Shown here piece by piece: positions 5,782 through 41,352 of a stretch of 64,000 nucleotides of DNA. The stretch lies in the NCBI GenBank assembly GCA_965645245.1, contig OZ287069.1, positions 62,001 to 126,000 on the forward strand, in the 5' to 3' direction. Positions within the stretch are counted from its first letter, which is position 1. Each line of letters begins with the position of its first letter. The notes beneath the pieces were generated by a model. The model had not been told where the DNA came from. It saw only the letters and a list, made by a program, of their open reading frames with translations, and ran no database searches. Source of the DNA: Massalongia carnosa (Eukaryota). The position numbers and the translations under genes are program-made.

Positions 5782-8287
5782 ATGTCTTTCTCTACCTTGC
5801 CCGCTTCTAGTCAGAAAACCGTGGTAGTCCTCAAGGAGCCCGGTGACAGGGATGAATGGATCCTTATCGTGGAGTCCATGGCCAAGCGAGGTGTAATCGA
5901 GCAGTATGTGGACCTGGCGAAACCTGAGCCAGACGAGCCAATCAGACCCATTACCCCTACCTTCTCTTCCGTGAAAGCAGGTGCCGTGTCATCTGAGGAC
6001 TTAACCGAGGGACAGCGACGGGATCTGATATTGCGAAGAGAGGATCATAGAGAAGACTTGCGTACGTATCGGGAGAAGACCGAAGCCCTAAAAAACCTGG
6101 AAGCATATATATTGACCACCGTGGATCGGACCAATTTGTTATATCTCAGGGGACAGGACTCGATATATAAGAAGTTATCAGCTCTAAAGAAGAGGCTTGC
6201 ACCGACGGACCGGATCAGAGAACTCGAAGTTATTCGGAAATATAAGGACCTACAACGTGCCCCCAAGAGTCAGCAACTGGATCACTGGTTGTTGGAATGG
6301 GAGAAAGTCTATGCAGAAGCGGACAGACTGAAATTTCCGGACGTTCAGGGACATAGATGCATTTATGATTTCTTGAATGCGCTGAGGACAGTGGACGGTT
6401 CGTTTGTGGCCGGTAGAGAGGCCATATAACATTATAAAATTCATCGGAATGAGGAAGATTTCTCGATAAGGGATCTTCTGGAAGAATTCCGGAATCATTT
6501 GCGAACCGCCAGGGCCCTAGATAGCAAGGGGGCTACCCATTCGGCATTTGCAACATTTCAAGGATCTGACCAATCAGATCAAGAAAAATCGAACTCGACA
6601 ATGAGTCAAAAATCAGCTCAGGGATCTAACTCGGACCAAGGAAATTCCGAGAAGAAGTGCATATGTGGCAAGAAGCACCGCTTCAAGGATTGCTACTATT
6701 TGCTCAAGGACCTGAGGCCAGAGGGGTGGACCCCGGACAAGAGCATTGAGAAAATAATAGAAGAAAAGCTAGCTAAGAATCATCGGCTAGATAAGATCAT
6801 CAAGTCGGTCCGAGATAAGCACGCAAAACAAGTCGAAAAAGTCGGAAAGGAAGAGAAATCGTCTTCAGAAAAATCCGATCCTGCAGCATTTGCAGTTTCG
6901 ATAGTGCCTGCCGGATCATCAGTCTCGATCTTGCCTGCCGCACCACCTAGATCGTTTTCAACGTTTGCAGTTGCTTCCGAACCGGAGCCACATAGGTTGG
7001 TCAACTGTTGGACCCTGGATTGCGGAACAGACATTCATGTATGCAATGATCCGGAGCGGTTTCAGTTGACGCGTATAGCAAACACTGATGACAAGCTCAT
7101 GGCCGGAAAAACCGTTTATAGCATAGATGGATATGGAACGGTAGATATCACGGCACAAGGACCTCATGGGCCGGTGCCAATCAGGCTTCTAGATGTGGCG
7201 CTATCCTCAGGATTTTTCACCAATTTGGTGTGCCTAAGCAAGCTAACAAAGAAGGGGGTTCACTGGGACACCGAACATTCTCATCTGCATCAGAAGGGAA
7301 AGACGTTCTGCCGCACCAAGCAAATAGGGGGCCATTGGGTGATAGAAGACAACCCACCAACGGTAAGGTCGCATAGAGCATTTGCGGCCAGTACCAGTCC
7401 GAAACCGGAATTGATAGCGACGGGAAAAGAGTGGCACGAGATGCTCGGTCATCCTGGACCGGAAACAATTTCTCACCTCGAAAAGGGGGTAGATGGAGTT
7501 AAGGTAACAGTACCCGAGTCAGCACCGAATACGATGCAATGCGAGACATGCTCGCTGACCAAAGCCCATCACCTGATCTCGAGACGTTCGGGACAGGAAG
7601 AGCCAGCGAATTTTCCGCTCGGTCGAGTAGGGTATGACCTTATTCAGCTGACTGAAGCATACAACGGGGACAACTGGGTGAGCCACTTCAGGTGTTTTTA
7701 TACCAGTATGGACTTCTCCTACACCCATACTCGAAAAAATGATGCTCTAGGGGTGATCAAGGAATTCCTGAAAATGACCAAGACTAGATACGATCAGACC
7801 GTTCGCTTTTTCCGAACAGACGACGAGCGAACCCTTGGCTTAGAATTCGCCGAGTTCATGAAAATGAGAGGTATCACCACCGAAAGATCGGCCCCATATA
7901 CTCCTGCACAAAACGGTCATATCGAGCGATCTGGGGGGGTACTGGTGATCCGAGCGCGGGCCCTGCACATAGCAGCAAATTTGCCAGCTAGTATGTGGCC
8001 AGAAATATTCAAAACGGTTGGTTATCTAAATAACCGGACCCCGAAGAAGATGCTAGGGTGGAAAACACCAATAGATAAATTAACCGGGGAAAAACCGAAA
8101 CTATCTCACCTGCAGCCGTATGGTTGTCGAGCGTTCCCGCTTAATCAGGTGATTCCCAGGAAAGAGAAGCTCGAACCAAGGGCTTTTTTATTGGATACCT
8201 GGTGGGGTACGAACTCCACTAACATCTTTCGAATATGGATTCCCAGCCGTATGAAAGTCATCCGGACCAGGGATGTAATGTTTGATA
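5782..8287 (+). pseudogene. Copia-A gag-protease-integrase (stop at 6427-6429; cut by the Tc1-like insertion)
   Basis: Zn knuckle CICGKKHRFKDC; protease WTLDCGTDIHVC; WHEMLGHPG..CETC; integrase RTDDE, QNGHIERSG, YLNNRTP. Confidence 0.88.
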
Positions 8288-8498
8288 CAGTCGACTGCAA
8301 AAGGTTGGTCGCGACCCTGAATTTGGGACCACACATCACGCGAAAATGGCAAAATGCCGGCAAAAATCCGAAAAAACTACCCTCACCGCCTACATGCCAA
8401 TGAAGTCGTACTACTGGTCAGTATTGAAGCGACTTGTAGATTAGTATATGTAGATGCCATTCCCCGTCTTTTTTCCCTCTCTCCTCTGCCATTTCCCC
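8288..8498 (+). repeat. Left TIR of Tc1-like element
   Basis: Reverse complement of 12761-12976 with a few mismatches and indels. Confidence 0.92.
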
Positions 8499-9551
8499 AA
8501 AATTCCCCCCCCTCTCAGTGAGACCCTTCGTGAGACAATCACGCTTCGTTTTGTACGAGGTGACAGCAATAAGACAATTGAATCTGTCACTGGTGTTGGC
8601 ATCAAACAGATTCAATGAATGAGACGTAATTGGACTCATTTTGGAGATGTGCTTCTACCTCAATTGTCAATTGGACATCGCCCTCGTAAACTCAGTCAAT
8701 TTCATGATATTAAACTTCTGAAATATCTGGAGCAACGTCCGCATGCCTATCTGGACGAAATGTGCTGGTTCATTTGGGACGAATTTCAGATCTCTGCAGA
8801 TGAGACCACCGTTGGTCGTGCCCTAAAAAGGCTTGGTTGGAATCGAAAGAAGGTGATCAAACAAGCAGCTCAAAGAAATCAAGGCCTTCGAGATGGATGG
8901 ATGCAGAGACTCGGAGAATGGACTGCAGAGCAATTGATCTTTTTGGACGAAAGTGCAGCTTGCGAAAGAACCGGTTATTTCCTATCTCATCTTTCATCCC
9001 ATCTTCGTCATTTTTCTGACTTTCTGACTAGGTAATCGACGATACGGATGGGCTCAGGCAGGCGTCCCTCCAATCATGATTCAGGATTTGAAAAGGTCAA
9101 AGAGATGGAGCATTCTCCCTGCATTTACCGTCGATGGATATATAGCTTGGGAGGTGCATCAGATCAGGGCTCCATAACTGCCGAAATTTTCAACGACTTC
9201 GTTCGAAATCAGGTTCTTCCTCAGACGACTGCCAATGGAGGTCCTAGATCTGTTTTAGTACTAGACAATGCCAGCATTCATTGGAATCAGGAGCTTATTC
9301 AGATGTGCGAGACAGCCAACGTCACCTTGGCACGACTACCTCCTTATTCTCCATATTTCAATCCAATTGAAACGCCGTTTGCATTGCTAAAGGCATGGAT
9401 TCGACGGAATGGAGAAATGAGTCTTTCGTACACGGAGGAGTATGGGGGATTCGGACAATTTCTTCCGGATGCAGTCAAAGATCTGAGAATGGGAGACCCG
9501 GGAAATTTATTTAGATTGGCTGGCATTCAGTATCCCACCATTTCAATCTGA
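8454..9551 (+). pseudogene. DD34E transposase (Tc1/IS630-like), probable intron 8974-9031, stop at 8616-8618, frameshift near 9160
   Basis: Motifs IFLDESA, (spliced) TGNRRYGW and VLVLDNASIH...LPPYSPYFNPIE with 34 residues between D and E; N-terminal HTH-like region. Start codon uncertain. Confidence 0.88.
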
Positions 9552-9566
9552 TTAGATACATAGTAT

Positions 9567-12500
9567 CTAATCCTCATCTTCATCTTCGGCATAATCGTAT
9601 TCTAGACTATACGTCTCATCTTCCTCAATTGTATCTCTCACTCCAGATCCTACCTCCCCGCCCCCGTCCACCTCCCCATCCTCTATCCCCTTATCCACCC
9701 GAGTGACCGCCTGAGTGACCGCCTGAGTGGCCATTTGCGATGTCGGTAAATGGCGTTGACGCCGAGGGGGAGGCGGGGGCATTTGCTGAGATATCTGTCG
9801 AGACATTTGTCGAGACATTTGCAAAGGCATTTGCCGAGACATTTCTCTTCCAAATTTACTGACGTCTCGCGCCAGTTGAATCCCGATTCCCGGAGGAAAT
9901 CCTAGCTCCTGCCAGAACGTCTGATGCTCGATGACTTTCAAGGATTGAACGGTCATCATATCGTACCCACCTTCCATCAATCGATCGCAGGCGTTGGTGA
10001 GCACTCCTTTCAAATGAGGCTTCATTTGAACAAGCCAACTGACATAGTCTTCCAGATCTTCTTCCACTGGACTGCTGCGGGCGACGGAGGGGAGAGGGAG
10101 AAATCGACTCACGCTTCGACTGCTTCTGGATGATCTCGAATCTCTCCAATCCAACGGCGTTTCCTCAAGGGCTCCTCTCGAGTCAGGTAATGTAGAAGGA
10201 GCATACTGAGAAGGATAAAATGCCGGGGGGGAAATGCCGAGTGAGGAAATGCCGAGGGGAATGCCGAGGGAAATGTCGAGGAGAATGCCAATGACGAGGG
10301 GGGAAATGTCGAGTGGGGGATTTGGTACGAGTGGTGTTGATACATGGGATGTTGATAAATGGAATGCCCACCTCCAAAGGGCATTTCCTGAGACGAGGTT
10401 TCCTGTTTTGGAGATGATGATTCAGTCTTTTTCTTACCTTTATTCAGGGAGAATAAATTCTCTCTGATCTTCGGTGGAGGTGTTCGAGAATCAACGCCTG
10501 AAATTCCATCATCTAGTGCTTTATTCCAGGTCACGAAATGAGCACTGTTGAGAGGATAGATTCTTCGTCTCATCATTCCAACAGTACTGTCCGAAATTCC
10601 TACATGCGCGTTTTTCACAGAGATGCAGACTTTGCAATTCGGACATTCTTTCGGCCGTCATGCCTTGCAACATGGCTCGTTCCTCCATCTCTTTTTGCAG
10701 CTTCATGGTTGTAATGGGCTACGAGACCAGTAAGCTTATCACGAGCGACACTGATCTCGAAAGGGGAAATGCTCAGCGTGAGAGGAGGAAGATAGCTACT
10801 ACGTGCTAGTCTCCGAGAGTATACGTGATCCAGGGAACTAATGGATGTGGAAGTGCTTAGACCAAGAGATCTCGTCCGAGACCCAAACGTAGGTTGTTCA
10901 TAGAATAAAGACTAATTGCTAACGAATACTACAAGATTCGTTCTGATATTTATCCTACTCACCCCAAGCCTATAGCCTTGGGAGCCTTGCAAGCCTTGGG
11001 AGTCTTGCGAGCATTACAGCCTTGCAATCCACATCCGACTTTATCGCATTACATCCAACCATCCCTCAGGATCCATCCACGAACTCGACGTTCGCTGGAT
11101 CATCTAGTCAGCCTCGAGCAGCTTTCTAGATCTTCCCTTGCAAGGTAGAACCATTCTACCCCCGGCTAGATCCCTCACTACATGCCTCAGGCTATGTAGC
11201 TTCATTTCGCCGTCACCACTACCTAGTGATGGAAGGTTACCTCCGACTGAATACCTCGCTACACTGCGGACCTGCCTCTAGACACAAGGTCTAGACAACG
11301 AGGTCATGTAGGTTCATTCAGCCGACATCACTACCAACGTAGTAATAAAGGTTGAAGCTGAAGTTTACACCAGGGAGCCTAGCTCAAGCTGCGTCCAGCG
11401 AGCCGTGCCTCCTGCTACCTCTCTTGATCCATCAAGAGATCCAGTAGCTCCGAGTAGGCCAGTAGATCCTATATAGAGTTCCTTGGCGTCTCCACAGGGG
11501 TCCGCCTTACACTCCATGGCAATCTACCACCACGGCCTCGACAGGTGTTTGATCTGTAAGTAGTCAAGAACGTGATAACAATAACTCGGAAGTTTCGGGG
11601 CAAGATGGCAGTGTGTCAGCCTCGACAGCTTATGCGACTTCGTACTACGGCATGGTCCACGCTAGTTAATCCCGCAACCGCCATAGGCGATCACGTATCC
11701 CTCTAGCGCCATCCGTATTACAATGGTCGCGGTTCCCAATTTCTTGGTGGCGACAGCTGTGGCAGCAGCAATAGGATCATCGGGAGGAATGACGCAATCT
11801 TTGGTACCACTGAAGTTGAAAATAAGATCAACCGCGAAGCTTTTCTTTCGAATGCTGCTGAATTCTAACTGAATTAGAACCTCCTCAATGGGCTGCCAGG
11901 ATTCGATCAACATGAGAGCTGATTTTTCATGCGGTTTGATTCCATTCCATAACACGGTCGCTTTGATATCGACCAAATGACAAGCATACATTTTGGAATT
12001 CGCATACGTCTCGGCTTTCAAACTCATGTCCCCGGTGTAGCTTCTCAAAAAGAATCTTTTCGACGTAGTTGAATTGACTTCGTATGGAATCACCGTCTCG
12101 AAAACGACGTGCTTCTCATACGACATCTTCACATTTAGTAGATATTTGATTACCGTCGGAGGCAGCGGCGAAGGGGATAAACGGGAGGGTTCCTTTCTTC
12201 TTGGTTTTCTAGACTTCTTACTGACAATCTAGTTACTAGGCACATTGAGATCTTCGACATCATCTTCGGCATCATCTTCGGAATCATCTTCGGCATCATC
12301 TTCGGCATCTACAGCTTTCATCGCGTTCTCATTTCTCCACTGACCCTGCCACCTCTGCTTCTCGTCTTCATCCGTCCAGTCGTCGGAGGAATCCTCCGTA
12401 ATGACAAGGGGACTATAATAATTCGATTCGAAAGTCTTTGACTGCTGAGGCTGGACCTTTGACTTGGGAGGGGCCTTTGGCTTGGGAGGGACCTTTGGCT

Positions 12501-12744
12501 TGGGAGGGGCCTTTGGCTTGAGGGGGGCCTTTGGCTTGAAGGGGGGCTTTGACTTGAGGAGAGGCTTTGGCTTGGGAGGAGCCGGCGTCGATTCCGGCGA
12601 GGCTTCATCGATGCTGGCGGCGACAATGGCTCTGGCTCTCGGCCCTCCCAAAGTCAGTTTGATTCTCTTACCTTTGAAAGGCTCTTTTCCAGCCGGGGGG
12701 GGGCCGGAATTTGATCTTTTTGCTCTCGGTTCACGAAGTTTCAT
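9567..12744 (-). pseudogene. Second gene of the Tc1-like transposon, unknown function (~720 aa reconstructed), interrupted by a solo LTR
   Basis: Frame continues through the TAG at 12229-12231 and across the solo LTR (GTAT|MKLQKE). Contains PKAPPK repeats, acidic tracts, a CEKRACRNFGQYCW motif and a C-terminal helical region; two further frameshifts. Confidence 0.7.
10710..11722. mobile_element. ~1.0 kb solo LTR (copy 1)
   Basis: TGTAAT...ATTACA termini; 5 bp TSD ATGGT (10705-10709, 11723-11727); near-identical inverted copy at 40323-41352. Confidence 0.88.
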
Positions 12745-12760
12745 ATCTGAGGTAAAAAAT

Positions 12761-12976
12761 GGGGAATGGCAGAGGGGGGAGGGAAAAAAGACGGGGAATG
12801 GCATCTACATATACTAATCTACATATCGCTTCAATACTGACCAGTAGTACGACTTCATTGGCATGGAGGCGGTGAGGGTAGTTTTCAGATTTTTGCCGGC
12901 ATTTTGCCATTTTCGCATAAATATTTGATGTGTGGTCCCAAATTCAGGGTCGCGACCAACCTTTTGCAGTCGACTG
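12761..12976 (-). repeat. Right TIR of Tc1-like element
   Basis: Reverse complement of 8288-8498. Confidence 0.92.
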
Positions 12977-12978
12977 TA

Positions 12979-14565
12979 AGACAAGATTCTATGAGCCCAA
13001 TGAGCTCGATATAGGACATTTATTAAACATAACCGTGGAAAACGTAATTCAGGTGTTGGAAGTGCCCGAAACATCCTTTGCAGGAGTGACGATTGAGCAA
13101 GACGATGAGGAGGTAGGTCCGAGATTGGACCAAACAACCAATCAACCTAGTGAAACAGAAACGTCAGAAAAGACGATATTTCCTCCTACCGATATGGAAA
13201 ATAATCCTCACTTACCTACCCCTGAAAAGACACCGGAGCTTGATGGTTTGGAAAAGACTCTGCAATCGGACGTTCAAATAAGCTCCGAGCCGGACGTTCA
13301 AGGAATGCCAGGTGTTCAATCAACCGAGGACGGACCGAGCCTGCCGAGACAGTCGGCTAGGCCGAGACGGACGCCTCGGGTGGTAGAGACAACGGATGAA
13401 TCAATTGCCAGGAACACTAGATCAAGGAAACAGGCATATGCAATTGCGCTGGCATCAGTCAGCAAGTTAACCCCGTTCCATGCAGCGTTTTCGGTCGGCC
13501 TAGAACGGCCACAGGTCGGAACCTTGAAGAAATTCCATCGGGATGAGATCCCGGTGGAGCCCCGATATTGGAGGCAGATGCTCCATCACCGTTTTTCGCA
13601 GGAATTCCAGCTAGCGGCCATCAAAGAGCTCACCAAGCTTGAAAAGCGTGGTACGTACGAGCTAGTGGAAAAAGTTCAGGGACAGGACCGGATACCACTC
13701 ACCTAGGTATTTAAGTATAAGCATGCCACCGACGGCTATGTTGAGAAATTCAAGGCCCGTCTATGTGTACGAGGAGATCTTCAGATGACTCAGCAAGATA
13801 CGTATACTGCAACATTGGCAGCGAGAACGTTTCGAGCTCTAATGGCTATTTCAGCTGCATTTGACCTTGATATCTACCAGTATGATGCGGTCAGTGCTTT
13901 CATAAATAGCCCGATTGATGAGGAAATCTTTTGTGAGTGTCCAGAAGGTTTTGACAAGCCCGGATACTGTTGGAAGCTTAGAAAAGCTCTGTACGGATTA
14001 AAACATGCACCGATTCTATGGTATAAGCTCCTAACCATGGCCCTAGAGGAACTCGGACTAGCGCAGTCCCAGGGGTCAACTGTCTATTTGCCAATGAGTG
14101 GATTATCCTATTCTTCTATGTCGATGACATTGTGGTCATACGCAGGAAGCATAAGTCGGACAAATTTTAAGAATTTGAGAAAGCTCTCCTGAAACGATTC
14201 GAAATGCATGCTCTAGGGGAATTGAAATGGTTTCTCGGTATAAGGATTACCCGAGACCGAGCAAATAAGAAGATATGGTTATGTCAGGACTCATACATTA
14301 CCAAAATGGCTGCGAAATTTAATCAGCACGGGGAAACCGCGAAAACACCACTGACAGTGGTGTCTCCAGCCTATGAAAAGGAGCAAAAAGCAGACAGTCA
14401 ACGTATATATGCGTACCAGCAACGGGTAGGTTCATTGAACTTCCCAGCGGTAATATCCCGGCCCGATATAGCATTTGCAACTGCAAAATTAGCTTAATTC
14501 TTACAAAACCCGTGCCCGGATAATCTGTCTGCGGCCGATCGGGTTATTGCTTTTCTAAATGGGAC
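12979..14565 (+). pseudogene. pol: Copia-A pol, integrase C-terminal linker and RT (stops and frameshift)
   Basis: KARLCVRGD, QYDAVSAFINS, KALYGLK, YVDD (shifted frame), WFLGIRI, SRPDIAFA. Confidence 0.88.
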
Positions 14566-22254: not shown

Positions 22255-25200
22255 TGTCAAACCTGAATGTGGTCGATTCTCATCGCCGATCCTCGACCCC
22301 CTGTCGCGGCAGATGCCGCTAAGCTACGCCATTTCTTCCACACCTTTACCCCTCAATTTGCCGGGGTTAATATCGTTGCTGCCATGACCCCTTTTCCCTT
22401 CTATATAGGTAGCTAGATGTGGGCATTTCCCACATACAGAATACAGCCTTTTTCATCCTTCCTGAATTCATGTGAAAGGTTGACAGTTATGAGCCCGGGT
22501 TAGCTGAATTTTTCGCTGCCTCCGTCTTAACTTTAGTTATTGGTAAGCTGATTTATCGCTGCCTTCATCGACCCCGAAATATCCTAGGCAGGCTGAGTAT
22601 CGCCGCCGGAATTATCGTATCTCTCATGGAGCATCGCAGAGTTGATTTATTCCTCGTGCTTCTATTTTCCTTTGCCTTTTTGGTCGTTTCCCTGTTTTTC
22701 CCATCTGTCTCCATCTTTGGTCGGTTATCCCAAATGGAAGACTACTCGTCGGGATCGTCTCGGAAACTCATCGTCTCGGCTCTGACGCCTAGGACCTACA
22801 ATTCCTGGTTGTCGGAAATCAAGGGTATCGCGGTACGATCTCAGGTATGGGAGTACGTCGATCCGGAAGGATCAGAGTCGGAACCTACCATTCCCAAATT
22901 TCCCAAATACAGTGATTACGTCAAAGTCGTCTCGGCAAATACGCCTGGCACTGACTCTACCAATACCCCTACGCCTGCTATTGTCGCTTCTCAAGGTTCT
23001 TCTCAAGGGACAGTTCTCGGCGATTTAAATGGTCCGCCGGTCCTGATTCCCGAACCATGTTCTCGGTATGCCGATCTCTCGGAATCACAGAAGGAGTCGT
23101 ACAATGCAGATGAACGGTCACATCGAGGGCTTCAGGCAGATGCCAGGGCCGCAGCCATGGGAATTGAGAAGGTTCATACGGTCATCCTAGAGTCGGCTAA
23201 AGATTATGTCGCCAGGAATGTCAGATCATCCTCGGTTCGAGAAATTCTTCAGTCCCTGGCCCATAAGTTCAAAAAGAGTCCGGACGAAGTTCAAAGGCAG
23301 ATCGATCGCCAATACGACGAGTTGAGAAATTCTCACCCGGTGAAAGGGAAGATCGAATCTTGGATCTGCCAATGGGAAACGCTGAGGGAAGAAATCGTTG
23401 CTTTGAAAGTTGAACCCATCTATAGTGAGTATATCTACACTCAGCACTTTCTGAAAGCCGCTCGGATATGGGCACCATTCTTTTGCGACACCTGGATCAA
23501 GATACGAAATGTATCAGGTCGTCCCCTTAAATTCTTCGAGGCCGCCAATGAGTATCGGACCGAGATAGAAGAAAATGCAATCAGCACTGGTCGTCGTCAG
23601 CAGCTCTCGGCGAATTCCGCTTCTCTACAAGGACAGTCTTCCGATCAGGGAAATTCCACTTCTGACGATAGCAAGTACAGCAATAACGAATGCCTTTGCG
23701 GCGAAACTCACTCCTGGAAAAGATGCCCTTATTTGACAGTCGAGTCTAGAATCTCGGGATGGAAATTCAATAAGGAGATACGCGACCACATCCGACAGAA
23801 AATCGGGTCCAATTCCAAGCTTTATTGGTATGTCAAACGCGCCGCTACATCCGACATTCTCAACGGCATCTCCGAGCCTGATGAACCTTTGAAACCTCGA
23901 GGAAGAGGAAGAGGTGGAGGTCGAGGGGGTCGCGGAGATGGAGGTCGTGGCCGAGGCAATGGCAATGCTCCCGCCGAGCTCCCTGTTGTCGAGAATGCTC
24001 CAGTCTCTTTTGGAAATACTATCTCGGATCGCGACAATCTGCTTCATCTCAGCGTCTCCTACGACTCGGGATGCTCCAATCATCTGACCTGGGACAAATC
24101 CCGTTTTATTGACGAAATCATCCCGGCATACGAGTGGGTCTCGACTCCCGACGGAGATCTCCTTATTGAAGGTTTTGGGACAATGTTGGTGAATGGGACA
24201 CTAAAAGGGAAGAATCAGCCTCTGCATTTTCGACACACAGCATACGTTCCCGACTCATCGGTGACTTTGATTTCGGTCAGCAAGCTGAAAAAGGATGGAT
24301 TTCTGTGGAACATGCATACGGACACGGTCGAGAAGAAGGGTATTTCAATCTTCGAATTGGAAGAGCATTTCGGTCTCTACACTGCCGAGTATCGTCCCGT
24401 TGGCCACGCTGGTGCTTTCGCAAATTTCGTCGGTTCCCGAGTCTCGGCAGATGCCATCCCAAAAGGCACGCCATGGAAATTTCATCTCCGCCTAGGACAT
24501 TGCCAACCGGAAGTCATTAACCAGTTGTCGAATCAGAAGATGATTGAGATTTCAAGAGGTAACAGTGGTCAAGATGCTCCAAAGACAGTGAAATGTGAGA
24601 CGTGCGCATTGTCAAAAATGCATACACTAGTATCAAGGGTCTCGGCTACTAAAGCCACTAAACCATTCCAGCGTCTTCATTTTGACCTCATTATTTTGAA
24701 AAGGACTGCTTTCGATGGGACCACCTGCGTCGCTCATTTTCAGGATGATTTCACCTCGTTTCATTGGGTCTTCCCCCTGCAAGATCATAAGCAGGAGACA
24801 CTACTTCGGATTGTCAAGCATGTCATAAATCGGTGCGATCGACTCGGAGCCGAATTCGGTCTTTTCGTTCAGACCTTTCGAATGGATCAGGAAACGTCGG
24901 TTGGAGACGTCATTCAAGACTTCGTCAAGGAACAGGGAATCGCGTTTGAATGGTCCGCAAAGCATACTAAGGAGCAGAATGGGTCGGCTGAGAGGGCAGG
25001 AAGCCTTTTGACTCAGAAGGCTAGATGCATTCGCATCGGCGCCGATTTGCCAGAAGATCTGTATCCCGAGTGCTATCTCGCTGCTGGACACTTGCTAAAT
25101 AGGACGCCGACAAAAGGACTAGATTGGAAATCGCCTCACATCTCCCTGCACCGAGCCCTGAAGAAGCCATACAATTCCGAAATTGGTCATCTCAAGGTCT

Positions 25201-28083
25201 TTGGGTGCAAGGCATATCCCCTTTTGAAAGGTAAAGATGCCCCGCCAAAAAGTGAGAAACTAGCCCCTCGAGCATTTGTTGGCTATCTGGTCGGATACGA
25301 TTCTACAAACATTTATCGAGTCTGGAATCCCGAGACCTGGTCGGTCAGCGGATATAGAGATGTTATCTTTGATGAGGATCAAACCTTCTCCACATACGTC
25401 AAAAAGGATCTGATTCCCGAAGAGAAGGTGGCCGAGTTTGTAGAGCTGGAAGTTTTCGATGCTGCTCCCTACATTGTTGATTTGGCAGAAAATGAGGAGC
25501 AATGGCTGGCGACATCTGTGCGCAATCGGTCATTTGCTGATCCTTCTTCGTCGGTTGAAAATTCGTCCGCACTGGATGTGCCCGCGTCGTTGACTGCGAA
25601 AGACGTCCCTATCATGCCGAGACATTCACCGAGTCAGCAGCATCTTCCGACTCCCGAGAGCACTCCGCCTCCATCGACTTCAGCACCTGCACCTACATCT
25701 TCTTCGTCAACATCTCGCGACAAACGGGTGGTAAAAGACAGTCTTCCGAGTAGCATAGATCTACCGACTGATCTGCCAGAAACCGGCCGGACGCCTCTCG
25801 GCATTGCCGAATCTTTTGGCACCGGTCCCAGTAGGAATATCGGATCTGCCAAATTGGATGTCAGCAATATCGTCGAAGGAAAACGAGTCAGAAAACCGAA
25901 GCAGAAATTCGCAAATCTCGCAGCACCTCTCGGCATCAGACCACTCGGCATCGCTTCGGAACCACTAGGGAATACAAACTCGGGATTGGATGACGGGATG
26001 AAGGAAGTTTATTTGGCATTTGCAGTGACCACTAGGTCGACCAGATTGCATAGGGACAGCCTGCCGCCGCCGCCGAAGCAGTGGCGAGGTATGCTTCGAC
26101 ATCCCCATGCAGAAGGATTTCGCAAAGCAGCCGAATTTGAATATCAGACTCTTCTCAGAATGGACACCTTCGTCGTCATTCCCAAAACTTCCAATCAGAA
26201 GCCGCTTCCACTAATGTGGGTATTTACATACAAGTTCGACCCGGATGGCTTTCTAGTAAAATACAAGGCACGCCTGGTAGTCCGAGGGGATTTGGAAGAA
26301 GTCTCGGCAGAAGATGTATACGCCTCTACGCTGGCAATTAAGATCTTCAGGTGCCTCATGGCCCTGACGTCTGCTTTCGGACTCAGGACAAGGCAGTTTG
26401 ACGCGATCAATGCCTTCCTAAATGCCAAAGCCGATAGGGTCATCCACGTGTATATGCCAGATGGTTTCGTCATCGAGGGGAAATGCTTGCTCCTGGTCCG
26501 GGCTTTGTACGGGCTTCGAAAATCGCCTCTACTATGGCTACGAGAATTTTCCAAAGCACTCACCTCATTGGACATGCAGCAGATCCCTGGCGAGCCCTGC
26601 CTTTTTACCGACTACTCTGGCATCATCCTCTTTTTCTATGTGGATGACATAGTCATCATCTTTCCGGAAAGTAGAGCTGCAGACGTAGATCTGCTGATTC
26701 AGAAGTTGAATGCTCGATTTGAATTACGCGACATGGGCCAATTGAGCTTCTTTCTCGGTGTACGGATTGTTCGAAATGCTGGCGACATTTATCTTTGTCA
26801 AGACTCCTACATGGACAAGTTGGCAATTGAATACGAGATAGACACGTCTAAATCTCCATCATCCCCGCTACCGTCAGACTTCATCGCATTCACCTCTGCC
26901 TCGGCAGCTAGCCCAGACTCGGACTCGCCTCGGTCAGTCGACCAATCCCTGAGGCAGGAGTATCGTAAAAAGGTAGGATCGATCTGCTATCCCGCGAATA
27001 TCACTCGGCCGGACGTTGCCAAAGCTGCCTCCAAATTGGCAGAGCATCTCACTTGTCCCGGTCCGGAGCATATAGACGCGGCAAATCACTGCCTGCAATA
27101 TCTACACACGACTAAGTATCTGGCGATAAAATACTCCCCCTCGGGAGGTGGCGAGCTTACCGTGCAGTCTCCGGATGATGATCAGCTCTCGGCAAAGCAT
27201 GTCTTCGAAAACACTGCCGATGCCAGCTTTGCAAATAGTCCCGAGCGACGCAGCTACGAGGGTTTCACATTCAAGCTGTATGGCGGCATGATCGACTGGG
27301 CTGCCAGGAAGCAGGCGACCGTCTCAACTTCGACGACAGAGGCAGAATTGCTTGCCCTTCTCCATGCCGGCAAGGCATGCATCTGGTGGATTAATTTCTT
27401 TGGCAAGCTGGGATTCGACTACGACCATTCGGTCAAAATCTACAATGATAACATGCAGACCATCCGCATTCTGACGTCGGAACAGCCCAAAGTTACCACC
27501 AAACTTCTGCATGTAGACATCGCTCAGTTGTGGTTGAGACAGAGCGTTCAATTTGGTCATCTCAATGTGGGTTATCTACAGACCAGCCGGATGACGGCAG
27601 ATGGTCTCACCAAGCCCTTGCCTCCGCAAAAGCATCGTTCCTTTCTGGAAATGCTAGGCCTTATTGATATCAAGTGTCTGATTTAGGAATGGGGCAGGCG
27701 GGAGTGAACCGGGCGGAATTCCTCTCGGCGGGCAGAAATTTCTTTTCACTGGCATCTCATTTTGATTTTGCAAGAATTGCACCTTTTTCTCGAAGGGGAA
27801 TTGCTTCATGTTTTCTTCTTTTGGTCAGGATGCTTCGCATCCTGGGGGGGTGTGTCAAACCTGAATGTGGTCGATTCTCATCGCCGATCCTCGACCCCCT
27901 GTCGCGGCAGATGCCGCTAAGCTACGCCATTTCTTCCACACCTTTACCCCTCAATTTGCCGGGGTTAATATCGTTGCTGCCATGACCCCTTTTCCCTTCT
28001 ATATAGGTAGCTAGATGTGGGCATTTCCCACATACAGAATACAGCCTTTTTCATCCTTCCTGAATTCATGTGAAAGGTTGACA
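22255..28083 (+). mobile_element. Ty1/Copia element (Copia-C), intact, 5829 bp
   Basis: 231 bp LTRs 22255-22485 and 27853-28083, identical by eye; TSD CTAGC; PBS gttatgagccc; G-rich PPT; single long ORF. Confidence 0.96.
22626..27686 (+). CDS. Copia-C Gag-Pol polyprotein (true start may be 22734)
   Basis: CLCGETHSWKRC, YDSGCSNH, HLRLGH..CETC, QNGSAER, KARLVVRGD, YVDD, STTEAELL, ADGLTK; uninterrupted 1686 aa. Confidence 0.95.
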   Translation: MEHRRVDLFLVLLFSFAFLVVSLFFPSVSIFGRLSQMEDYSSGSSRKLIVSALTPRTYNSWLSEIKGIAVRSQVWEYVDPEGSESEPTIPKFPKYSDYVKVVSANTPGTDSTNTPTPAIVASQGSSQGTVLGDLNGPPVLIPEPCSRYADLSESQKESYNADERSHRGLQADARAAAMGIEKVHTVILESAKDYVARNVRSSSVREILQSLAHKFKKSPDEVQRQIDRQYDELRNSHPVKGKIESWICQWETLREEIVALKVEPIYSEYIYTQHFLKAARIWAPFFCDTWIKIRNVSGRPLKFFEAANEYRTEIEENAISTGRRQQLSANSASLQGQSSDQGNSTSDDSKYSNNECLCGETHSWKRCPYLTVESRISGWKFNKEIRDHIRQKIGSNSKLYWYVKRAATSDILNGISEPDEPLKPRGRGRGGGRGGRGDGGRGRGNGNAPAELPVVENAPVSFGNTISDRDNLLHLSVSYDSGCSNHLTWDKSRFIDEIIPAYEWVSTPDGDLLIEGFGTMLVNGTLKGKNQPLHFRHTAYVPDSSVTLISVSKLKKDGFLWNMHTDTVEKKGISIFELEEHFGLYTAEYRPVGHAGAFANFVGSRVSADAIPKGTPWKFHLRLGHCQPEVINQLSNQKMIEISRGNSGQDAPKTVKCETCALSKMHTLVSRVSATKATKPFQRLHFDLIILKRTAFDGTTCVAHFQDDFTSFHWVFPLQDHKQETLLRIVKHVINRCDRLGAEFGLFVQTFRMDQETSVGDVIQDFVKEQGIAFEWSAKHTKEQNGSAERAGSLLTQKARCIRIGADLPEDLYPECYLAAGHLLNRTPTKGLDWKSPHISLHRALKKPYNSEIGHLKVFGCKAYPLLKGKDAPPKSEKLAPRAFVGYLVGYDSTNIYRVWNPETWSVSGYRDVIFDEDQTFSTYVKKDLIPEEKVAEFVELEVFDAAPYIVDLAENEEQWLATSVRNRSFADPSSSVENSSALDVPASLTAKDVPIMPRHSPSQQHLPTPESTPPPSTSAPAPTSSSSTSRDKRVVKDSLPSSIDLPTDLPETGRTPLGIAESFGTGPSRNIGSAKLDVSNIVEGKRVRKPKQKFANLAAPLGIRPLGIASEPLGNTNSGLDDGMKEVYLAFAVTTRSTRLHRDSLPPPPKQWRGMLRHPHAEGFRKAAEFEYQTLLRMDTFVVIPKTSNQKPLPLMWVFTYKFDPDGFLVKYKARLVVRGDLEEVSAEDVYASTLAIKIFRCLMALTSAFGLRTRQFDAINAFLNAKADRVIHVYMPDGFVIEGKCLLLVRALYGLRKSPLLWLREFSKALTSLDMQQIPGEPCLFTDYSGIILFFYVDDIVIIFPESRAADVDLLIQKLNARFELRDMGQLSFFLGVRIVRNAGDIYLCQDSYMDKLAIEYEIDTSKSPSSPLPSDFIAFTSASAASPDSDSPRSVDQSLRQEYRKKVGSICYPANITRPDVAKAASKLAEHLTCPGPEHIDAANHCLQYLHTTKYLAIKYSPSGGGELTVQSPDDDQLSAKHVFENTADASFANSPERRSYEGFTFKLYGGMIDWAARKQATVSTSTTEAELLALLHAGKACIWWINFFGKLGFDYDHSVKIYNDNMQTIRILTSEQPKVTTKLLHVDIAQLWLRQSVQFGHLNVGYLQTSRMTADGLTKPLPPQKHRSFLEMLGLIDIKCLI

Positions 28084-28088
28084 CTAGC

Positions 28089-31000
28089 ACATTGCTGTCC
28101 CGGCCCCGTAATGGTTCATTCAACCACCGCCGAGGAAGAACAGTTCCTTATGCCTGCCGAAAGTCAGAAGGTATGGGAGACTAAAGATCAAGAAACCATT
28201 CTGCAATCTAGTCAAACAGAACCATCGAAATTTGACTTTCAGGCTGAAGACGGTCCCAGTCGAATCCTAACCGCCATGCAAAAAGGCGTCTCCCCTAGGA
28301 TCCGATACCGGTCCGGGAGCTACGTTCGTTTAGCACCTCGCTTACATACCTCAAACCCCCTGCCCAGTAAACTAACCGCGGTTGAATCCGCACCAACCAA
28401 CCCAGCCCAGCTTCGAGTCAGTGAGGTGAGCGCCGGCACATTCGACCGCCTCGCAAGACAGAAGGACCACGAGATATTCAGTATCTCCCTCCAAGAAATA
28501 GACCGGTTCTTAGGTATAGAATCGCCTTTAAAACCCCCTAGCCCTAGCTCCAGGTCATCTATTAAGTTAATAGCAACCCAAGTTTTCCCCCCTTTTAACA
28601 CTAAGGCCTGTCTAAGTGATAAGGACATGCACCTAGCCATTTGCAGAATGCACAATGAACTCACCCTAGAAACCTCCGTCACTCAAGAAGAACTTGAGCA
28701 CGTTCGGCAGCAAAAGAACGTTGACCCGGCACCTCTGCTTCCAAAGCAATACCACAACTACCTAGATGTCTTTTCCAGAAAGGAGTCCGATAAACTACCG
28801 GAACACCGCTCCCATGATCACGCCATCGTCTTAAAAGAAGGTTTTCAACCACCTAATCAAGCTCTTTACGGGATGAGTCGTGATGAGATCCAGGAACTTC
28901 GTCGTTATCTAGATGAGAATCTCACCAAAGGATTCATTCGATCTAGCCGCTCACATGCAGCCTCCCCGGTTATGTTTGTTAAGAAGCCCGGCGGAGGACT
29001 TCGATTCTGCGTCGACTACCGAGGACTAAACGCTGTCACCATAAAAAATCGTTATCCAATACCTCTAATCACTGAGACCCTCAACCGTTTGTGCAAAGCC
29101 AAGATATTTACCAAGTTGGATATTATATCAGCATTCAATCGCCTGAGAATCAAAGAGGGAGACGAAGAACTTACTGCTTTCCGGACTCGTTTCGGTCTCT
29201 ACGAATATCTTGTCATGCCTTTCGGTCTGTGCAACGGACCTGCCTCGTTTCAACATTTTATCAATGACACCCTGAGGGAATACCTAGATAGATTCTGCAC
29301 CGCGTATCTAGATGACATCCTCATCTATAGTGATGACGAAATCGAACATGACCTACATGTAAAACAAGTCCTTGTCAAACTCAGAGAGGCCGGACTCCAA
29401 GCGGACATCACCAAGTGTGTCTTCGGAGTCACCGAGGTCCCCTATTTGGGTCTCATCGTCACTACTAAGGGAGTCAAGATGGATCCTGCCAAGATCGATA
29501 CCGTCATCAATTGGCCTGCGCCCGTTAACGTTAGGGATGTTCAAAGCTTTCTAGGATTCGCCAATTTCTACAGGCGTTTCGTATTTGGGTTCAGTAAAAT
29601 AGCCTCGCCGTTGACGAACCTAGCCAAGAAGGGAACGAAATTCTCCTGGACTAGCGATTGTCAGCAAGCCTTCAATACGATGAAAAAAGCATTTACCTCC
29701 GATCTTATTCTCATGCACTTTGATCCAGACAAGAAAATCGTGGTCGAAACGGACGCCTCCGACTTTGTATCGGCGGGTATCCTATCGCAATATGATGAAA
29801 AAGATATCTTGCGTCCCGTCGCATACTTCTCGAAAAAGCATAACCCTGCCGAGTGTAACTATGAGATCTATGACAAAGAACTCATGGCCATAGTTCGAGC
29901 TTTCGAGGAATGGAGACCTGAACTAGAAGGCTCCGCCCAACCCATCGATGTTATTTCAGACCATAAGAACCTGGAATATTTCACCTCTACCAAGCTTTTG
30001 AGTCGGCGCCAGGCCCGATGGAGTGAGTTTCTATCTCGCTTCGACTATAAGATAGTCTACCGACCTGGGAAAGCCGGCGGTAAACCGGATGCCCTAACTC
30101 GACGGTCAGGAGACCTCCCTGAAGAAGGGGATGAAACCGATGAGCGGAACTCATTTCAGCATCAGACGATACTGAAAACGCATAACCTAGACGACGGAGT
30201 AGCCGAGAGCTTCAATTCAACAGTGGTTGGAACCTCCCCAGACCCCATAGTGCTCGCTCCTGCTATTCTTGATCAAGAACAAGATCTTGACGAGGATGAT
30301 GACACAGAGACGGATCATGAAGAACCCCAACTAGATTTAGTTACTGATCAGCTAAACCCCGACAATGACCCAATGGACGTGGCCACTCAGGACCTTTGGA
30401 ACCGAGCCCTGGATAGGGATAAGTTTTCACCCCGTGTTCTAGAAATGCTTCGAAACGGATCGAGATATCATAGCGGCATACAACTAGCAGAGTGCGAAGA
30501 CAGAAATGGGATTTTGTACTTCAGAAATCGACAATATGTACCCAAATCAGATAGCCTTCGCCTAAGAATCCTACAACTCGCTCACAATAGTGTCGCAGGT
30601 GGACACCCAGGCCGTGCCAAATGTTATGAACTCATCAGTCGCTCTTATTGGTGGCCTAGCATGCACAAAACGGTGCAACGATTCGTCAGAAACTGCCATG
30701 TCTGCAAAAGAGCCAAACCCTCCCGTGAACGTTATCAGGGGTGGCTTAGGCCCTTACCTCCACCTGAGCGTCGCTGGCGCGATGTTGCTATGGATTATGT
30801 CGGACCCCTCTCGGCCAGCACCTTCATGGGAATCACCTATCGGTACATTCTAGTTTTCATAGATCGCCTAACCAAGATGCGCCATCTGGCTCCAGTCACA
30901 TCCATGGAAGTCGAAGAAGCCGTAGATGCCTTCTATCAGAATGTATGGAAGCATCATGGCCTACCTGATGTTCTCGTATCAGATCGAGGTTCGCAGTTCG

Positions 31001-31929
31001 TATCGGAACTATGGGAATTGCTGTGTAAGCGGCTAAAAATCGACGCACGGTTGTCCACCGGATACCACCCGGAAACCGATGGCCAGACAGAACGAGCCAA
31101 CGCCTCCATGGAGCATTATCTTAGAGCCTATGTCAACCATATGCAGGATGATTGGGCCAAGTGGCTACCAGGCGCTGAATTCGCGGCTAATAATACGGAC
31201 TCTTCCACAACTCTTGCTTCGCCATTTCTAGCAAATTCTGGTCAACACCCCCGTATAGGATTCGAACCCTCCGAGCCTCTCCCGACGGACATTACCGCTC
31301 AAAGTCGAAATAATCTGATCGCAGCTAATAAGTTCGCGGACAGGATGAGAGACTTAGAAACTCATCTTCATGATGAAATGTTAATCGCTCAAGCCATCTA
31401 TGAATCCACTGCCAATGCAAACCGCCGACCATGCCCCCGCTATAAAGTGGGTGATATGGTATGGTTAAACACAAGGAATCTTCAAACAGCGAGACCCACC
31501 GTCAAGTTAGACGATCGAAACATCGGACCCTATGCGGTCAGTCGAGTTTTCTCAAACCCTCTAGTGATACAATTGGAGCTTCCTCCTAGTGTCAAGATCC
31601 ACCCAGTTTTCCATGCAAACCTTCTGCAGCATGAAGCAGATGACCCCCTTCCTGGCCAGCATCCCGCCCCTCGTGAACCTGTCGAAGCAGAAGACGGACA
31701 GCGAGAATGGTATGTGAACAGCATATTGAACTCCAAATACGACCGACGATTTCAACCTCCACTCCTTCAATATTTCGTTAATTGGGAAGGTCATAATCCC
31801 ACATGGGAACCTTTCAATTTCCTAACCAACTGTCAGCAAGCTCTAAACGAATATCATCAGGCTTACCCCACAGCTGCCGGACCACATCACACCCCTTGCA
31901 ATCTACCCCGTTGCCGCTGCCAGGAATAG
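28089..31929 (+). CDS. pol: Gypsy-B Pol RT-RNaseH-integrase-chromodomain
   Basis: LRFCVDYRGLN, YLDDILIYS, ETDASD, GHPG..CHVC, SDRGSQF, GQTERAN, YFVNWEGHNPTWEP; open frame. Confidence 0.93.
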
Positions 31930-40322: not shown

Positions 40323-41352
40323 TGTAATACGGATGGCGCTAGAGGGATACGTGATTGCCTATGGCGGTTGCGGGATTAACTAGCGTGGACCATGCCGTAG
40401 TACGAAGTCGCATAAGCCGTCGAGGCTGACACACTGCCATCTTGCCCCGAAACTTCCGAGTTATTGTTATCACGTTCTTGACTACTTACAGATCAAACAC
40501 CTGTCGAGGCCGTGGTGGTAGATTGCCATGGAGTGTAAGGCGGACTCCTGTGGAGACGCCAAGGAACTCTATATGGGATCTACTGGCCTACTCGGAGCTA
40601 CTGGATTTCTTGATGGTTCAAGAGAGGTAGCAGGAGGCACGGCTCGCTGGACGCAGCTTGAGCTAGGCTCCCTGGTGTAAACTTCAGCTTCAACCTTTAT
40701 TACTACGTTGGTAGTGATGTCGGCTGAATGAACCTACATGACCTCGTTGTCTAGACCTTGTGTCTAGAGGCAGGTCCGCAGTGTAGCGAGGTATTCAGTC
40801 GGAGGTAACCTTCCATCACTAGGTAGTGGTGACGGCGAAATGAAGCTACATAGCCTGAGGCATGTAGTGAGGGATCTAGCCGGGGGTAGAATTGTTCTAC
40901 CTTGCAAGGGAAGATCTAGAAGGCTGCTCGAGGATGACTAGATGATCCAGCGAACGCCGAGTTCGTGGATGGATCCTGAGGGATGGTTGGATGTAATGCG
41001 ATAAAGTCGGATGTGGATTGCAAGGCTGTAATGCTCGCAAGACTCCCAAGGCTTGCAAGGCTCCTAAGGTTCCAAGGCTCCCAAGGCTATAGGCTTGGGG
41101 TGAGTAGGATAAATATCAGAACGAATCTTGTAGTATTCGTTAGCAATTAGTCTTTATTCTATGAACAACCTACGTTTGGGTCTCGGACGAGATCTCTTGG
41201 TCTAAGCACTTCCACATCCATTAGTTCTTTGGATCACATATACTCTCGGAGACTAGCACGTAGTAGCTATCTTCCTCCTCTCACGCTGAGCATTTCCCCT
41301 TTCGAGATCAGTGTCGCTCGTGATAAGCTTACTGGTCTCGTAGCCCATTACA
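40323..41352. mobile_element. ~1.0 kb solo LTR (copy 2, inverted relative to copy 1)
   Basis: TGTAAT...ATTACA termini; TSD CAGAG (40318-40322, 41353-41357). Confidence 0.88.

Follow-up and report, generated by a model that had tools for sequence, protein, structure and literature searches.

A dead two-gene Tc1-type transposon with a large convergent partner gene in Massalongia carnosa

In general, Tc1/mariner elements are regarded as the textbook case of a minimal, self-sufficient transposon with one gene, and they form the basis of gene-transfer tools. Their canonical fungal representatives are the Tc1-like elements of the IS630-Tc1-mariner group (DD34E, DDE_3), for example impala of Fusarium. 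Two-gene cut-and-paste transposition is represented by PIF/Harbinger elements, which encode a transposase together with a Myb-like DNA-binding protein. Here, we describe an element at positions 8288-12976 of a 64,000-nucleotide stretch of Massalongia carnosa DNA (GenBank assembly GCA_965645245.1, contig OZ287069.1, positions 62,001 to 126,000 of the forward strand; the whole stretch is called “the window”). The element is a dead copy of a Tc1-type transposon that carries, in addition to its DD34E transposase gene, a second, convergent gene of about 720 codons (“the partner”). The partner is of an undescribed family and unusual in Tc1, multi-gene Tc1/mariner elements as such being already in print.

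The original prediction for this locus took as established that typical Tc1/mariner elements carry only a transposase. The one-gene state is indeed typical of Tc1 without defining it, but exceptions of three kinds are in print. Some mariner-type elements carry Fanzor1, GIY-YIG or restriction-modification genes (Bao and Jurka 2013, PMC3627910). The TBE/Tec elements of ciliates, which are germline elements, combine a DD34E transposase with further frames, three in total and one of them on the opposite strand, with a zinc-finger protein or, alternatively, a site-specific recombinase encoded among them; the inverted ends of Tec are very long (PMC7325037). Lastly, Dici1 and Dici2 of Diutina catenulata are IS630-Tc1-mariner elements of about 4 kb with a TA duplication, CAGTCG ends of 8 or 33 bp, DD34E and three coding sequences, namely a protein of 143-146 aa of unknown function, a central transposase of 473-477 aa and a relic transposase (PMC13469147).

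Compared with these systems, the element shares with canonical fungal Tc1 the TA duplication, the CAGT ends and a transposase of about 330 residues with helix-turn-helix (HTH) region, DDE_3 domain and DD34E signature, and differs from it in having the convergent gene of about 720 codons and inverted ends of about 210 bp. It resembles the Fanzor-carrying Mariner elements in being a TA-flanked Tc/mariner element with an extra protein gene, but no Pfam match to TnpB/Fanzor, GIY-YIG or restriction-modification families was found in the partner pieces of the window or in 17 + 13 members of the partner family. With TBE/Tec it has in common DD34E, an opposite-strand frame and, for Tec, long ends; by the available description, no relation to the partner is apparent. 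Dici is alike in being a fungal IS630-Tc1-mariner element with TA duplication, DD34E and more than one coding sequence. In contrast, the present element has two genes, a transposase of the 330-aa class and ends of about 210 bp, and no Dici coding sequence resembles the partner of about 720 aa, the comparison being one of printed descriptions (PMC13469147). Judged by their printed descriptions, none of the extra genes of the Fanzor and nuclease carriers, TBE/Tec or Dici resembles the partner. The likeness to PIF/Harbinger lies in a second gene that is a candidate DNA-binding helper, which makes that system a working analogy for mechanism, whereas DDE_3 and a TA duplication stand here in place of a Harbinger-type transposase with a 3-bp duplication, and the partner pieces and the same 17 + 13 relatives yielded no Myb/SANT match in Pfam. 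Full-text searches, together with passages of PMC5751038 and of a preprint on lichen transposable elements, gave no description of a two-gene element with this partner, subscription journals, Repbase and supplements lying outside the search.

The element lies inside the pol gene of a copia-type retrotransposon and is flanked by a TA target-site duplication at 8286-8287 and 12977-12978. Its left terminal inverted repeat (8288-8497, forward strand, about 210 bp) begins with CAGTCGACTG, and the right one occupies 12761-12976 on the reverse strand. Both begin with CAGT. A repeat finder resolved the arms into stretches of 53 nt (100% complementary), 35 nt (97%) and 125 nt (95%), and BLAST aligned the two ends with 91.7% identity over 218 columns. 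The right end contains 8 additional nt at 12918-12925 (read inward, AAATATTT), which have no counterpart in the left end. The interrupted copia frame (6499-13706, consisting of 6499-8285 and 12979-13706 on the forward strand; Pfam Pol_BBD and SH3_retrovirus) is restored by excising the element together with one TA, the translation then running from ...RDVMFD directly into KTRFYEPNELD. We also considered doubled binding sites of the IR/DR type in the inverted ends and rejected them, because an internal repeat of the outer 45 nt scored 12 against a shuffle mean of 13.8, none above the shuffles.

The transposase gene reads inward from the left end on the forward strand. Exon 1 (8502-8973) encodes the HTH region, with a Pfam HTH_33 match of 27.1 bits (cut-off 25) and HTH_32 under its cut-off. 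It is followed by an intron of 58 nt (8974-9031, GT..AG, with a CTGAC branch site before its 3′ end) and by exon 2 (9032-9551, stop codon TGA at 9549-9551), which matches DDE_3 with 59.3 bits (cut-off 28.6, E 5e-16). Splicing joins ERTG to NRRYGW, in alignment with ERTGDRKYAW of the relative P0064, and in the translation 34 residues are counted from the second D (LDNASIH) to the E (NPIE). The product belongs to the class of spliced transposases of about 330 residues with HTH and DDE_3 and, judged by its sequence, is an ordinary fungal Tc1-type enzyme. P0064 begins with MPPPLSE at the same place as the start codon 8502-8504. An in-frame ATG is also present upstream, at 8454, and we had considered a shared start codon within both inverted ends (ATG at 8454 and 12804); this was dropped, as the ATG that other copies have at 8502-8504 matches the start of P0064. 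The GC content at third codon positions (GC3), calculated from small samples, is 0.38-0.42 for the transposase (8502-9548) versus 0.46-0.54 for the partner (9570-12744) and 0.48-0.53 for neighbouring retrotransposon genes.

The partner gene reads inward from the right end on the reverse strand and fills about 60% of the element. Its ATG lies at 12744-12742, 17 nt inward of the right inverted repeat, and its stop codon TAG at 9569-9567. The gene is split by a solo long terminal repeat (LTR; TG..CA, 10710-11722), whose 5-bp duplication ATGGT occupies 10705-10709 and 11723-11727. The 5′ part (11728-12744) encodes a basic N-terminus with PKPK repeats, an acidic tract and a beta-grasp-like domain; the 3′ part (9567-10709) encodes a cysteine motif, a low-complexity linker, a SAM-like tail and an acidic end. 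Deleting 10710-11727, as had been suggested, joins the frame in the same reading as in the near-identical proteins P0001 (317 aa) and P0002 (475 aa), both 94% identical, which read through the LTR site and both frameshifts. From 12744 to 9567, minus the LTR, the gene measures 2157 nt, and with 6 missing nt added it has about 721 codons. From the N-terminus onwards, these specify the basic segment, the acidic tract, a predicted domain of the beta-grasp (PB1-like) type, a putative knuckle Cys-x4-Cys-x6-Cys...His, a linker rich in Pro and Tyr and a predicted SAM-like tail of five helices with a GIG loop of the helix-hairpin-helix type. The anatomy given in the original prediction was accordingly confirmed throughout: the TA duplication, inverted ends of about 210 bp, an inward-reading DD34E transposase on the left, a partner of about 720 aa reading inward from the right once the LTR is removed and lesions are read through, the inserted solo LTR itself and all three partner motifs (CEKRACRNFGQYCW, YPLNSAHFVTW...PPP and WQELGFPPGIGIQLARDVSKF). 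The predicted distance of about 15 bp between the two stop codons (9551/9567) also held, as exactly 15 nt lie between the end of the transposase stop at 9551 and the partner stop at 9567-9569. A perfect palindrome with 8-bp arms, TTAGATAC-ATA-GTATCTAA (9552-9570), covers this gap and extends over both stop codons, and may be a two-way 3′-end signal. In P0002, the partner continues as Y-ILCI and stops at a TAA directly next to the transposase stop.

To compare the window copy with others, we made use of contigs from four public sequencing runs aligned to 7800-13500; altogether, 55-64% of the words sampled from the element recur in five public runs, of which one is labelled as a lichen metagenome. 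The empty copia site is represented in three of the four runs by a joint from 8285 to 12977, which skips 4691 nt and shares 2 letters that fit either side, and in the fourth by a matching loose end. The element free of the LTR is found in all four runs, with a joint from 10704 to 11723 that skips 1018 nt and shares 5 letters. One contig of 2511 nt spans 8450-10704 and 11723-11977 and thus unites transposase and partner. Its sequence departs from the window in 29 letters (24 and 5 in the two parts) and in exactly 11 gap letters, the sum of the three indels. Copies of this inverted-repeat family that lack the partner would have spoken against the original prediction; the contig instead joins the partner to the transposase.

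Six small lesions of the window copy are all intact in the contigs of other copies. In the transposase, the start codon 8502-8504 is ATT where others have ATG (8504 T>G in all four runs), an in-frame TGA at 8616-8618 is CGA in others (8616 T>C, four of four), and 5 extra nt that shift the frame near 9158 are absent (four of four). In the partner, 1 nt missing near 10224 is restored at 10224/10225, 5 nt missing near 10558 are present as ATGCT, and the in-frame TAG at 12231-12229 is TCG in other copies (12230 T>G). Further changes specific to the window affect residues that are conserved among relatives, for example Y for D at 9354 (PPYSPDYNPIE) and F for I at 9899 (LGIPPGIG). Among the differences listed (40 of 90), 29 are coding, of which 5 are synonymous and 24 non-synonymous, in a window copy that is dead. 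The stretch 8288-12976 is therefore a dead copy of an element that exists in other copies. In a protein collection, 17 partner fragments with at least 90% identity lie on contigs of 13 distinct lengths (0.23-3.77 Mb), possibly from more than one assembly.

The partner belongs to a larger family. A full HMMER search with its C-terminal 195 residues retrieved representative clusters, 42 in number at E≤1e-3 and 12 at the stricter limit of E≤1e-10. The architecture is kept in its entirety by full-length members (600-806 aa), at 24-27% identity (pairwise E 2e-30, 1e-21 and 4e-19). Invariant positions comprise three Cys residues, one Trp and one Pro, and a His and an RSSP motif are almost as strictly conserved. 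Named members are confined to hypothetical proteins of the lichen fungi Brigantiaea leucoxantha, Puttea exsequens and Kuettlingeria erythrocarpa, and none of the 30 clusters that were looked up has a UniRef source or a functional name. Most distant relatives sit on contigs of 1-10 kb, and none was found in two metagenome scans, one prokaryote-genome scan and one scan of viral contigs. The outcome named in advance as damaging, that homologues would be single-copy host genes unlinked to transposases, did not occur, and the relatives look like repeat genes. By eye, a basic motif K/R-L-K/R-L-x-G/P-P is recognizable near six of seven full N-termini and in the window copy (12620-12700); it occurs in P0018, P0039, P0040, P0042 and P0044, in the last up to four times.

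The nearest transposase relatives point to the same source as partner relatives. A search with the window transposase gave six matches, the best being P0064 (62% identity, ENA, contig of 4066 bp) and P0065 (55%, ENA, contig of 10484 bp). P0064 shares its source and a contig of equal size (4066 bp) with the partner relative P0035 (771 aa), and P0065 does so with P0044 (806 aa; 10484 bp). The 771 + 333 codons would occupy 3.3 kb, the size of one element, on the 4066-bp contig. In two trees, the window transposase forms a clade with P0064 and P0160 (support 99 and 97), and a clade of seven rows that adds P0065 has Shimodaira-Hasegawa-like approximate likelihood ratio test (SH-aLRT) values of 95 and 94. 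Altogether, 1,203 transposase relatives of fungal type were found at E≤1e-20, and the window transposase is nested among them.

Pfam assigns no family to the window's partner pieces at cut-off, nor to the shared partner regions of 17, 40 and 13 relatives, where none recurs beyond two weak matches. The sole match above cut-off, DUF7924 at residues 10-61 of P0024 (491 aa; E 2e-20), falls in an unrelated N-terminal segment, is absent from other members and probably reflects a gene model fused to an adjacent gene. Predicted folds were obtained from an AlphaFold model of P0001 (alignment of 15 rows, mean predicted local distance difference test score (pLDDT) 64.8) and a model of the C-terminal region from 40 rows. 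In the former, residues 53-166 are predicted as beta-beta-alpha-beta-beta-alpha-beta (pLDDT 70-85) and the region of the cysteine motif as knuckle, hairpin and helix (pLDDT 79-89). The best structural match of the central domain is the PB1 domain 4mjs_A (Z 6.9, root-mean-square deviation (rmsd) 3.1, 85/88 aligned), followed by other beta-grasp domains. The C-terminal model is a bundle of five helices with pLDDT of about 97 over residues 11-70. At Z 5-6.5 it matches SAM domains (top Z 6.5, rmsd 2.5, 63 aligned) and, equally well, RAD51-family N-terminal and NusA AR domains. Its conserved loop L-G-I-x-P-G-I-G-x-x-L-A presumably corresponds to the helix-hairpin-helix pattern. Taken together, these scores suggest plausible folds rather than family membership. 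Profile searches against PDB sequences gave nothing meaningful (C-terminal best: Lon, E 0.027), and the ESM Atlas held no usable match for the central domain and, for the Cys region, a best score of 0.77 that we treat as a lead only. A His-Me finger (PF05551) over the Cys motif was considered and rejected, because the match of one window piece (16.6 bits, cut-off 27, E 0.0093) found no counterpart in relatives (0 of 17 and 0 of 13).

The anatomy of the element, its lesions, its multi-copy state, the conserved partner family and the co-occurrence with the nearest transposase relatives are established by these observations. On balance, we favour the reading that 8288-12976 derives from an autonomous two-gene Tc1 (DD34E) element of a lichen-forming-type fungus whose partner acted as a nuclear, DNA- or chromatin-binding, self-associating helper. 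In intact relatives, the two genes would start just inside identical ends of about 210 bp, converge and have their stop codons nearly touching. Because both start 5-17 nt from the inner edges of the identical inverted ends, both are probably driven by inward promoters within these ends. The partner would then enter the nucleus, bind DNA or chromatin, associate with itself and support the transposase, whether at the long ends or at the target; by analogy to the second protein of PIF/Harbinger, it may pair the long ends or anchor the complex on chromatin. From the same material we infer that the partner's function is to help transposition. The proposal that it is a dedicated gene of the element and not random cargo is thus supported by the copies and by linkage, whereas the roles proposed along with it (regulation, targeting or anti-silencing) are not demonstrated.

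Several results weigh against this reading. As regards the folds, no chain reached Z≥8 for either domain. The best Foldseek hit had E 6.8e-3 for the central domain and, for the C-terminal domain, was the SAM domain of Scm with E 1.7 (rmsd 2.7, 68 residues). PB1 or ubiquitin models of Pfam matched 0 of 13 members and 0 of 17 scanned at E≤0.1, and helix-hairpin-helix models matched none of 40 or 13. The SAM-like C-terminus that had been proposed may fit the five-helix model with its SAM matches at Z≤6.5, to which RAD51-family and NusA domains are equal in score, but the sequence models for SAM matched 0 of 40 C-terminal members even at E≤10. A full-length partner was not found in the window's own lineage, all database proteins being fragments of 39-475 aa. 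As regards linkage, among the best 120 of the 1,203 transposases only P0064 and P0065 match partner contigs at top ranks, and most transposase relatives, on contigs of 1-3 kb, may be one-gene elements. A third contig match, P0165 with P0195 (Logan, 2629 bp), falls in a different transposase clade; it may be due to chance (about one is expected from about 120 x 25 short-contig pairs), or the partner may ride other Tc1 subfamilies too. The same-contig linkage itself is read from equal source and size, gene order and inverted ends of the distant relatives being unseen. Finally, divergence proceeds in the partner at roughly double the rate of the transposase, and the two genes are unlike in GC3, in small samples as given above.

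A stricter version of the helper reading, to which we give noticeably less credence, is that the element represents an obligate two-component lineage. Here, the transposase would be immobile without the partner, which would polymerize head-to-tail via its PB1-like and SAM-like domains and bind DNA via the helix-hairpin-helix-type loop and the basic N-terminus, thereby pairing the ends or tethering them to chromatin. If true, the partner would be the first accessory transposition factor in the Tc1/mariner class and would represent a new protein family.

Alternatively, instead of aiding the cut-and-paste step, the partner might deal with the host or with the control of copy number, for instance by repressing transposition or by blocking silencing, and the convergent genes might give rise to double-stranded RNA that limits the element. 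We consider this unlikely, although it draws on the same linkage and conservation as the helper reading. With the stop codons 15 nt apart, or abutting in copies of the P0002 type, and a palindrome across them, the transcripts should overlap, and the fast evolution of the partner (24-27% identity compared with 55-62% for the transposase) would suit a protein in an arms race. However, none of the partner's domains points in Pfam to a known silencing suppressor or repressor, and the DNA-binding-type tail and basic N-terminus fit either reading.

Less probable still is that the partner is passive cargo, taken up by a Tc1 element in a single capture from the host or a foreign source and of no use to the element. 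The different GC3 of the two genes would agree with such a capture, mariner-type elements are known to acquire other genes (PMC3627910), and some partner relatives lie on contigs of 79-605 kb in lichen-fungus assemblies. These long-contig relatives, however, are mostly truncated (329-597 aa), and the looked-up clusters without exception lack a UniRef source and a functional name. The three-domain architecture has moreover been retained where the transposases diverged to 55-62% identity, and the partner co-occurs with the two nearest transposase relatives.

That the partner stems from a separate mobile element, inserted into or joined with an ordinary one-gene Tc1, is the least likely explanation and in our view very improbable. 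The window is indeed rich in nested mobile elements, and the solo LTR is a genuine case of such an insertion. However, the partner is not flanked by a further set of repeats or by a duplication of its own, and the identical junction recurs in other copies. The gene moreover begins 17 nt inside the right end, stops 15 nt from the transposase stop and matches no transposase, integrase or reverse-transcriptase model.

The persistence of a second large gene in deeply diverged lineages suggests a function in helping or controlling transposition that goes beyond the minimal model of Tc1. The partner furthermore represents an unannotated protein family with three predicted folded domains, and some “hypothetical proteins” of lichen fungi are thereby explained as transposon genes.

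The window as a whole is crowded with nested gypsy and copia elements. A second copy of the solo LTR lies at 40323-41352 in opposite orientation with 97.1% identity, and words of the solo LTR are about 10-100x deeper than those of the element in all four runs, so that this LTR family is highly repeated. Two long frames look intact, one of a copia element (22626-27686, 1686 aa, RVT_2) and one of a gypsy element (28015-31929, 1304 aa, RVT_1, RNase H and integrase), and the region may contain young retrotransposons.

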